From sequence record PV682554.1: 64,000 nt of DNA, one strand, 5' to 3'. Origin of the DNA: Escherichia phage 92CQ. The notes below the pieces were generated by a model that did not search any database, was not told the origin of the DNA, and saw nothing but the letters and a program-made list of their open reading frames with translations. The translations under genes and the position numbers were made by a program. Positions 58,577 to 64,000 of this stretch are shown in pieces. Each line of letters starts with the position of its first letter. Position 1 is the stretch's first letter.

Positions 58577-59042
58577 TTTAACTACAATCAAGGTGTCTGA
58601 TCTACCTGTAACAACATCTGTTTCAGACACAGATTATTTTGTAACAGATCAATCAGGCATCACTAAGAAAACATCATTACGTGTTCTTCTTGCGGGTGCT
58701 GGTGTTACACGAAATCGTCTTTCTGCAAGGGGTACTGTTACAAACACCCTAGCTTTAGATATTAGTACGGCAGAGTATTTCTCTGCCACTTTATCTAGTC
58801 CAACTTGCAGTATTTCATTTAGTAATGTTCCAGTTACAACTAACATTGTTCAAAACTTTACTCTATCCCTACGTCAAGGCAGTGGAGCAAATAAAGTAAC
58901 GTGGCCTCAATCTGTTAAATGGAGTTTTGGTCGCGCTCCTGTTTTAAGTTATAAACAAGGAGCTACAGATATTTTTGAATTTGTTAGTTATGATAATGGA
59001 GCTACCTGGATAGGTAGTTTAGTGATGGCAGGAGTGATTTAA
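58569..59042 (+). CDS. hypothetical baseplate/tail protein
   Basis: 157 aa; overlapping starts and stops with both neighbours. Confidence 0.4.
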   Translation: MADLTTIKVSDLPVTTSVSDTDYFVTDQSGITKKTSLRVLLAGAGVTRNRLSARGTVTNTLALDISTAEYFSATLSSPTCSISFSNVPVTTNIVQNFTLSLRQGSGANKVTWPQSVKWSFGRAPVLSYKQGATDIFEFVSYDNGATWIGSLVMAGVI

Positions 59043-61926: not shown

Positions 61927-64000
61927 ATGAAACAGGCTATTTTTACTGTAACTCGAAATACGAGAGTAAATGCCAGTTCATTCAGCTATAAGACCGTCGA
62001 TGGAACGGCGGTCGCTGGTAGAGATTATGTAGCTAAACAGGGAACAGTAACGTTCCCTTCTGATGCAGATTCTGCTACTGTAGTGGTTGATGTATATGAA
62101 CGTCCGGCAAACTCTTTAGATCTTTATTTTACTCTTGAGATTACTAGCATAAGTCAAAATAACATGATGATCAATGAAGAAATTCGTTGTGTTATTACGA
62201 CTAATCAATCGGATACGACCCCGCTAACTTGGCCTGTTGTGAAGTCTAGAATGTTTGATCCTAAGTTTTGGACAATAGATTCTCAAGCAACAGAAAGTTG
62301 TTCTATTATCTCTAATGGTGATTCTTTCACAGCAAGAATGGTTAATAGGACAGTGGCTGGTCTTGCTGGGATTATTTGGTCAACTTACGATAAATATGAT
62401 CACAAAGGATTAGGCTACCAAGAACATTCTGACTTAAGTAAAGAGAAACTTTGGTTTAAAATGGAACTTAGTCAAGGTGTTCCTGGATTAAAAGAAGAAA
62501 AATTATTGCCATCCTTAACAGTGACACTGAAGGATGAAACAGTTCATTATGTATCTCTAAACTTTTATGCAGAAGAAGTTTCAGAGGATGGTAAAACAGC
62601 AACAATCAAATTAGATTTCTCAAATTTAAAATCTGGGCCAGAAAATAATATTGTTGTTGACACTACACAGATAGATAATATGTTCTTCTCCTTGATCTCC
62701 ACAAGGTATCAAGAAATTGAAGATATTATTCCTGTAGAGAATGAGGATCTTTCCTTTAAGTTTACCATACTGGAACCTGATACGGGTTATAGTATGATGA
62801 ATATGGGTAATTTAAATGTTCCAGCACACACCATAAGAATGTGTACATCTTATGATGATATGTATAACCTTACCCCAGAGCGAGTTATTTCTAACACCTA
62901 CAGATTAGGTTATAGGGATATGATTAACCACTATAATGGTATGTCACACTATTATCAATTTAGTTGGGACGCTGGCTCTAATAAATGGGCTTTGAACAGA
63001 ACAGAATATTTAAACCCAGCAACAGAAGCCTGGTTTGATAACTTCCACGCTAATGCAAAAGCTATGGGCTACACAGTAATGAACTCCTTAAGTTTTGAAC
63101 TTATGAGTACAGTGTGTCCTGTAGAATGGGTACAACATACTTGGAATGATGATCTGGCTGCTACAGGTTATGAGCCACCAAGTTATGTTTTATCTCCTTC
63201 AATTGACGAAGGGATGAATTATTTACAAGGTGTAATAAATAAGATAGCTTCTATATCCGCTGCTAATGATCTTCCGGTTATTATTCAGGTTGGTGAACCG
63301 TGGTGGTGGTATAACACAGCTACCAATCTACCGTGTATTTATGATTATACAACCAAAGTTGCATTTAATAATGAAACTGGATTATATGCACAAGATGTTG
63401 GTACAGTTAAAAATTATAAAACTGGTACACCATATGATGAATATTATGCATTCCTATCTAAAACATTAGGACTGCGTGTTGCTAAATTTGCAACAGATAC
63501 CAGATTAGCATACCCTGGAGCGAAAGTTACATTGTTACCATTTGTACCATCCATCTTAGGTAATGGTATGATGGAGTTTGTTAACTTCCCTAAAGATTAT
63601 TATATTCCAGAAAACTTTGACTTTTATTGTTCAGAATGTTATGACTGGTTGTTGGAAGGCAAGATGGAAAGATCTTTCGACGCTATCACAATACCTAATG
63701 AGCAACTAGGTTTTAGTTACGATAAGATACATTATCTTGCAGGGTTTGTTCCAGATGCAACTCTAGCACCATTATATGGCTTTGATCCTGAATCAAACTA
63801 TAGAACATATTTGTGGAAAATGATTATAGGCAATATTGTATTGAATGACCAGAAGTTTGTTGGTTTATATCAATACATATGGGCTTACCCACAAATAATG
63901 CATGATTCAATAACTGTTCTTAATTCAAAATCCCAAGTGTTTTATATGGGTAATGTGCCTTTGAATTGCTACTTGCAAGATATCACTCTTAAACAGGTAA
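61927..64000 (+). CDS. tail fibre protein, partial (runs off window end)
   Basis: ATG at 61927 after AAGGAAAA; open frame with no stop to the window end (absent from the ORF track for that reason); N-terminal Calx-beta-like segment VDGTAVAGRDYVAKQGTVTFPSDADSATVVVDVYE. Confidence 0.5.
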   Translation, partial: MKQAIFTVTRNTRVNASSFSYKTVDGTAVAGRDYVAKQGTVTFPSDADSATVVVDVYERPANSLDLYFTLEITSISQNNMMINEEIRCVITTNQSDTTPLTWPVVKSRMFDPKFWTIDSQATESCSIISNGDSFTARMVNRTVAGLAGIIWSTYDKYDHKGLGYQEHSDLSKEKLWFKMELSQGVPGLKEEKLLPSLTVTLKDETVHYVSLNFYAEEVSEDGKTATIKLDFSNLKSGPENNIVVDTTQIDNMFFSLISTRYQEIEDIIPVENEDLSFKFTILEPDTGYSMMNMGNLNVPAHTIRMCTSYDDMYNLTPERVISNTYRLGYRDMINHYNGMSHYYQFSWDAGSNKWALNRTEYLNPATEAWFDNFHANAKAMGYTVMNSLSFELMSTVCPVEWVQHTWNDDLAATGYEPPSYVLSPSIDEGMNYLQGVINKIASISAANDLPVIIQVGEPWWWYNTATNLPCIYDYTTKVAFNNETGLYAQDVGTVKNYKTGTPYDEYYAFLSKTLGLRVAKFATDTRLAYPGAKVTLLPFVPSILGNGMMEFVNFPKDYYIPENFDFYCSECYDWLLEGKMERSFDAITIPNEQLGFSYDKIHYLAGFVPDATLAPLYGFDPESNYRTYLWKMIIGNIVLNDQKFVGLYQYIWAYPQIMHDSITVLNSKSQVFYMGNVPLNCYLQDITLKQV

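Follow-up and report, generated by a model that had tools for sequence, protein, structure and literature searches.

Two large tail genes of Escherichia phage 92CQ encode gp141- and gp142-type proteins with glycan-enzyme-like folds, candidates for a globular module of the tail periphery

Two very large open reading frames (ORFs) close the analysed stretch of the genome of Escherichia phage 92CQ, and the question they raise is whether their products are receptor-binding fibres, enzymes acting on polysaccharides, or structural parts of the tail. The stretch, hereafter the window, comprises 64,000 nucleotides of sequence record PV682554.1. An earlier note, made from the sequence alone, had presented the two frames, here ORF A and ORF B, as distal tail genes and likely receptor-binding proteins. 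The explanation which is considered, on balance, probable is that they act together with a smaller upstream protein as a globular, glycan-processing module at the periphery of the baseplate, in which the ORF B product would bind the NGR glycan and the ORF A product would be glycanase-like. For this explanation, gene identity, domains, folds, conservation and gene fusions were obtained in the present analysis and the dependence on NGR is taken from the literature; virion position, catalysis and substrate are what we infer.

ORF A occupies positions 59042..61918 of the plus strand, like all other features of the locus described below, and encodes 958 amino acids (aa) from an ATG start which shares one base with the stop codon of the upstream 157-aa gene (TAATG). 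ORF B starts with the ATG at 61927-61929 and remains open for 691 codons up to base 64000 (61927..64000), so that the arrangement described in the earlier note, a 958-aa frame followed by one running off the window, is borne out. Since the full-length relatives of ORF B measure 719 aa (phi92 gp142, and a 99% identical protein, P0121), only about 28 C-terminal residues are cut off by the window end. An AAGGA ribosome-binding motif (61917..61921), overlapping the stop codon of ORF A, is placed 6 nt ahead of the ORF B start codon, and the two ORFs are co-transcribed, translationally coupled late genes.

A megablast search of 59042-64000 against the phage collection returned 84 records, 75 of them with a query coverage of 80% or more. 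The best matches, all belonging to Justusliebigvirus, were Escherichia phages PD114 (99.2%), PD06, ESCO9 and phi92 (98.8%); the phi92 identity extends over the whole 4959 bp, and PD114, PD06 and ESCO9 are slightly closer, at 99.0-99.2%. Given this 98.8-99.2% DNA identity to phi92-like coliphages, ORF A and ORF B are the phi92-type tail proteins gp141 and gp142, and thus already known genes. The phi92 RefSeq record lists their counterparts as gene 141 (958 aa, 'tail protein') and gene 142 (719 aa), with the same lengths, order and ribosome-binding sites, an AGGA site being annotated at the same place; nothing of substance differs, save the truncation of ORF B by the window end. Upstream of gene 141 that record has the tape measure, hub gp137, spike gp138, gp139 and gp140; downstream of gene 142 come the endosialidase gp143, the wedge proteins gp145 and gp146, the short fibre gp147, gp150 and gp151. 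A review table (PMC5380687) citing Schwarzer et al. 2012 enters both Gp141 and Gp142 as 'glycosidase' (predicted), as far as that table goes.

The product of ORF A, gp141, has a single family match, PHROG 2871 'tail protein'; no Pfam or PDB sequence match was found at E<=1 and none in NCBIfam. The sequence is strikingly conserved, homologues from phages and prophages of Pseudomonas, Stenotrophomonas, Gluconobacter and marine bacteria being about 45% identical; the gp141-like family is nonetheless small, with 206 clusters at 50% identity among 1.84 billion representatives. The protein is rich in aromatic residues, as had been claimed (tryptophan 3.4% versus 1.3% and tyrosine 5.8% versus 4.6% in the other long plus-strand ORFs), and the peptide quoted in support, GCAYAYLASGDTKYLDSAKKYWQAYIDYFF, is located at residue 76.

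The AlphaFold2 (AF2) model of gp141 is non-fibrous, with a predicted local distance difference test score (pLDDT) of 87.6 and a predicted template modelling score of 0.83. A single barrel is built from the helices in 67-104, 293-330 and 711-927, with beta-rich insertions breaking it up at about 120-290 and about 350-665. The first barrel segment (aa 60-118, 59219..59395; helices 67-84 and 87-104) contains the motif ATTEGQS and is followed by a beta-sandwich insertion (aa 120-290, 59399..59911). The second segment (aa 291-345, 59912..60076; helices 293-310 and 313-330) contains NASDAETW, and after it comes the larger beta-rich insertion (aa 350-665, 60089..61036), probably consisting of two beta-sandwich domains; residues 500-625 match PHROG 23426 'tail protein', a portion found separately in other proteins as well. 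The third segment (aa 690-930, 61109..61831) completes the barrel with helices 711-732, 773-790, 797-815, 840-855, 865-878 and 908-927. The C-terminal tail (aa 931-958, 61832..61915) is predicted to be disordered, with a pLDDT of about 30, and is not conserved outside the phi92-like clade. By fold the protein is an (alpha/alpha)6 barrel with 3REN as its closest structure, which places it in the class of glycoside hydrolase (GH) families GH8, GH76 and GH105 (also GH88).

Conservation points to a particular site on this barrel. E68, the candidate catalytic acid (59243-59245, within ATTEGQS; BcsZ has TTSEGQS at the equivalent place), D294 (59921-59923, within NASDAETW; BcsZ has SASDGDVW) and D750 (61289-61291) are invariant in 65 homologues, the last of them together with W746 and R748 of the third barrel segment. 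E68 is retained in 23 of 25 distant homologues, and the trio is kept in relatives down to 26% identity. Such conservation independently supports a putative functional site. Two distant homologues aligning over the full length (P0405 and P0419) have lost E68, D294 and D750 all together, and are possible pseudo-enzyme variants of the family.

Several results weigh against assigning gp141 to GH8. Identity to GH8 enzymes (BcsZ, CelA) is only 8-12%, and unlike in GH8 the barrel is broken by two beta-sandwich insertions of about 170 and about 340 residues. No Pfam Glyco_hydro_8 match was obtained at E<=1. With hhalign, the excised barrel reached P 0.15 against BcsZ alone and P 0.034 against a shallow BcsZ profile of 24 sequences, all close BcsZ relatives (>=60% identity), the probability being <=1.5%; the whole-family alignment gave nothing against BcsZ. 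TTEGQS (E68) and NASDAETW (D294) do line up with the motifs of BcsZ in an hhalign alignment of low stringency and low confidence, and the second ORF A motif has E where GH8 has D. Of the strict PROSITE-type GH8 signature, ORF A fits the first four positions only. D750 is a candidate equivalent of the GH8 base by spacing only. Moreover, the (alpha/alpha)6 fold is also found in epimerases, terpene cyclases and thioester proteins. With neither the Pfam search nor the hhalign comparisons against BcsZ significant, a sequence-level proof of ORF A as a GH8 enzyme is rejected. The earlier suggestion of a polysaccharide-degrading domain thus stands for the predicted folds, which in both ORFs resemble those of glycan enzymes, and does not stand as a GH8 sequence or profile match for ORF A.

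This failure at the sequence level also favours the strongest alternative, according to which gp141 is an inert scaffold or adaptor, namely the unassigned 'arm' on which the exchangeable spike gp143 and gp142 are mounted, its barrel being an enzymatic fossil or a lectin-type clamp. Conservation of gp141 is very high and independent of the host, and a study of phages of avian pathogenic Escherichia coli put gp141, gp142, gp150 and gp151 at more than 97% identity throughout the genus, in contrast to the variable gp143 slot nearby. Many different C-terminal extensions are found on the same gp141 body (NCTSP, Gly_rich_2, Big_2 and others), and its own C-terminal tail is clade-specific and disordered. 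In addition, in the cryo-electron microscopy (cryo-EM) study of phi92 (August 2026, PMC13450770), which screened fibre-shaped predictions only, fibre II and an 'arm-like scaffold' belonging to fibre I stayed unassigned. The conserved acid trio, for its part, speaks for a functional site. An inert gp141 is therefore regarded as a doubtful reading, to be taken seriously all the same.

The product of ORF B, gp142, was resolved into three domains. The first is the Calx-beta-like N-terminus that the earlier note had recognised, quoting the peptide VDGTAVAGRDYVAKQGTVTFPSDADSATVVVDVYE, which is found at residue 24. This domain (aa 1-95, 61927..62211) matches PF03160 over residues 4-80 with 38.1 bits against a gathering cut-off of 27 (E 1.7e-9), has PDB sequence matches to the CBD domains of Na/Ca exchangers (E ~4e-4) and a Foldseek match to CALX CBD12 (3rb5, E 5e-7), and shows seven strands within residues 3-90 of the AF2 model, with pLDDT 83-95. 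The Pfam family and the seven-strand beta-sandwich fold are thus common to this domain and to CBD1 and CBD2 of the exchanger, but the context here is that of a phage tail protein. By eye, the acidic stretch typical of Calx-beta domains after the conserved 'GT..F' is replaced, following 'GTVTF', by PSDADSATVVVDVYE, and Ca2+ binding therefore cannot be assumed. Most likely, the domain acts as an immunoglobulin-like adaptor.

The second and third domains are an NCTSP_N beta-sandwich (aa 109-274, 62251..62748; PF23844, 75.5 bits), aligning to the N-terminal region of N4 gp65, and a TIM-barrel_NCTSP domain (aa 299-660, 62821..63906; PF23845, 275 bits), both over the Pfam cut-off of 27. The closest solved relatives of gp142, to which it is also structurally similar, are the non-contractile sheath proteins gp64 and gp65 of phage N4 (PDB 9lc0, 9yf4, 9yf5), shown in a 2026 N4 structure paper to make up the sheath heterodimer. 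In N4, a podovirus, the module surrounds the tail as part of a 1382-aa sheath protein accompanied by a separate partner of 417 aa, and the NfrA porin is a further binding target of gp65; gp142, in contrast, is a 719-aa protein with a Calx-beta N-terminus in a phage with a contractile tail. In other phages the NCTSP module is joined to other adaptors, DUF7941 or DUF2460, or to none.

An alignment of 45 ORF B homologues revealed invariant acidic residues around the barrel: D310 and D311 after strand 1, E391 after strand 3, E457 in QxGEPWWW after strand 4, D473, and D565 and E570 after strand 6. The N4 proteins retain the same conserved barrel residues, and the pattern of carboxylates fits a sugar-binding or catalytic pocket. 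By its (beta/alpha)8 fold, the barrel resembles the glycoside-hydrolase domain of PgaB (GH153; PDB 4p7q, 6au1). Against this likeness it must be said that identity to the C-terminal domain of PgaB is only 8-12%, and that hhalign gave no significant sequence or profile match to E. coli PgaB (alignment A2, probability 0.1%).

The PgaB comparison bears on a second alternative, in which gp142 is a polysaccharide N-deacetylase tail fibre that moves the virion along NGR by deacetylation, as the fibre of phage G7C does. The record itself carries the annotation 'tail fiber with poly-beta-1,6-N-acetyl-D-glucosamine N-deacetylase', and both the BASEL paper and Sellner et al. gave a predicted deacetylase domain, for poly-N-acetylglucosamine (poly-GlcNAc) or for glycan, shared with N4. 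Nothing in gp142 corresponds to the N-terminal CE4 deacetylase half of PgaB, a NodB/CE4 domain was not found in ORF B, and no deacetylase family was among its top fold matches. As the barrel corresponds by fold to the glycoside-hydrolase half, the 'deacetylase' label appears to have been taken from the name of the bifunctional PgaB and not from its CE4 half. The poly-GlcNAc N-deacetylase label of the ORF B homologues is thus unsupported by the fold, the modelled barrel is glycosidase-type, and a deacetylating gp142 is judged quite improbable.

Regarding the receptor, the literature supplies a connection for gp142. N4, rV5-like and phi92-like phages all require wecB and nfrB, i.e. the NGR glycan (PMC8669472; bioRxiv 10.64898/2026.04.02.716166), and the latter, a 2026 preprint, presents phi92 Gp142 as the representative NGR binder for this group of myoviruses. 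This assignment rests on homology to N4 Gp65 and not on mutants; the BASEL paper had pointed out a domain in common with N4 Gp64. The idea that both ORFs encode receptor-binding proteins is backed by the literature for ORF B only, by way of these published data on NGR.

That the two ORFs should be ordinary trimeric tail fibres or tailspikes with variable receptors, setting the host range, as the automatic PHROG and GenBank labels ('tail fiber protein', 'long tail fiber TfpL') and the position of the genes in the tail-fibre block would have it, is the least credible reading and was rejected, since both confident monomer models are globular and multi-domain, with no beta-helix, coiled coil, collagen-like or other elongated shaft, both genes are nearly invariant within the genus, and neither protein is among the candidates of the 2026 phi92 cryo-EM screen of fibre-shaped predictions. 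The structure prediction and Foldseek comparison proposed in the earlier note hence returned no purely structural fibre folds.

Gene fusions and neighbourhoods link gp141 to gp142. A 1557-aa protein (P0095) consists of a gp141-like body (13-955) followed by the equivalent of gp142 96-677, that is, NCTSP_N and the TIM barrel without the Calx-beta domain. The junction falls at the position equivalent to the C-terminal tail of gp141, a covalent link replacing the Calx-beta part. The gene (6691-11364 of the contig L003, from Logan SRR10874396) adjoins SU10-type capsid and adaptor genes of an SU10-like podophage, showing that the pair of gp141-like and NCTSP parts is at work on short-tailed phages too. 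The same fusion, with an extra N-terminal extension, is present in P0383. In a P2-like prophage, downstream of V, W and J, the domain of the P2 baseplate protein I is fused to a gp141-like body (P0084), and in P0455 a gp141-like module is found at the C-terminus of a J-like tail-tip protein. Taken together, these natural fusions suggest that gp141 and gp142 form one peripheral tail module.

A small partner accompanies them. The upstream 157-aa gene (58569..59042) is the homologue of phi92 gp140, with a match to PHROG 9017 'tail fiber protein' (E 1e-69), and genes of the gp140 type are conserved ahead of gp141-like genes. In a Pseudomonas HP1/P2-like prophage the order is J, I, a 173-aa gp140-like protein, a gp141-like protein and a tail fibre; the 173-aa protein, directly upstream of the gp141-like gene, is 47% identical to the C-terminal domain of gp140.

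Two observations count against a position at the baseplate periphery. The main text of the phi92 cryo-EM study makes no mention of gp141 and gp142, neither of which it places, and in an Enterobacter siphophage-like prophage contig the gp141-like gene (L007, 9001-11823) is flanked by a tail-tube-like gene on one side and by the tail chaperone and tape-measure genes on the other. A siphophage-type locus of this kind is an unexpected place for a protein of the baseplate periphery. On the whole, the gp141-like family occurs on the tails of myo-, sipho- and podophages.

In the explanation that is preferred here, neither ORF product is a fibre, and gp140, gp141 and gp142 would most likely make up one globular glycan-processing module on the baseplate periphery. 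In its simplest form, gp140 and gp141 would sit on the outer wedge and gp142 would dock there through its Calx-beta domain, a contact to which the clade-specific C-terminal tail of gp141, a candidate docking peptide, may contribute. The layout of gp142 would accordingly be that of an attachment adaptor (Calx-beta), the NCTSP_N sandwich and the TIM barrel in common with the N4 sheath proteins gp64 and gp65. This barrel would recognise NGR, the exopolysaccharide dependent on NfrB and WecB that N4, rV5-like and phi92-like phages share as primary receptor. Because invariant carboxylates line its pocket at the ends of strands 1, 3, 4 and 6, the barrel would bind NGR and possibly hydrolyse it, and gp142 is predicted not to be a CE4-type deacetylase. 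As regards gp141, the E68/D294/D750 trio appears to be placed like the catalytic residues of GH8, and the protein is predicted to be probably an inverting glycanase acting on a conserved surface polysaccharide, or at least a glycan clamp, and may also be the platform carrying gp142.

A bolder version can be put forward tentatively, as a possibility rather than an expectation. The gp141-like proteins might be an uncharacterised family of active glycanases, GH8-like with two beta-sandwich insertions, that perhaps pair up with the N4-type TIM-barrel protein to work as two enzymes in one unit. The gp140-gp141-gp142 complex might account for density left unassigned in phi92, in fibre II, in the 'arm' of fibre I, or in both.

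The earlier note had also considered a degrading activity worth testing in view of the phage's own rhamnose pathway. This pathway is present: RmlD, RmlC, RmlA and RmlB are encoded at 9356-12617 of the minus strand, all four over the NCBIfam equivalog cut-offs, and constitute a complete dTDP-L-rhamnose pathway. Their neighbours are early genes and genes of nucleotide metabolism, KMB37 carries annotations for the same four, and in the literature the Rml genes are called putative dTDP glycosylation machinery. No rhamnosidase family was found among the fold matches. Since nothing was found that ties the Rml genes to the two tail proteins, the link is rejected as unsupported.

Further observations concern other parts of the window. 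The central spike, homologous to phi92 gp138 (57200-57937), bears near its C-terminus the histidine motif HTHTHP, which is iron-coordinating in the solved phi92 spike; despite this well-known structure, it has no PHROG match at E<=0.01. The sign of the GC skew flips near 32 kb, where transcription turns from the minus to the plus strand. The highest GC content of the window (0.436 versus about 0.37) is reached at 46001-48000, roughly at the major capsid gene as judged by KMB37 synteny.

For a genome scan the finding is an ordinary one, as it concerns known genes of a well-studied phage genus. What is added is a correction, based on fold, of the gp142 'deacetylase' label to a glycosidase-type barrel, a candidate active site resembling that of GH8, with its conserved trio of acids, in the 958-aa globular 'tail fibre' gp141, and Rosetta-stone fusions arguing that gp141 and gp142 work as a single peripheral tail module. 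Its practical value lies in concrete mutants and activity assays, and in candidates for the unassigned baseplate density of phi92. The phi92-like and rV5-like phages have a broad host range and are candidates for therapy, and the NGR glycan is what they first touch on E. coli.

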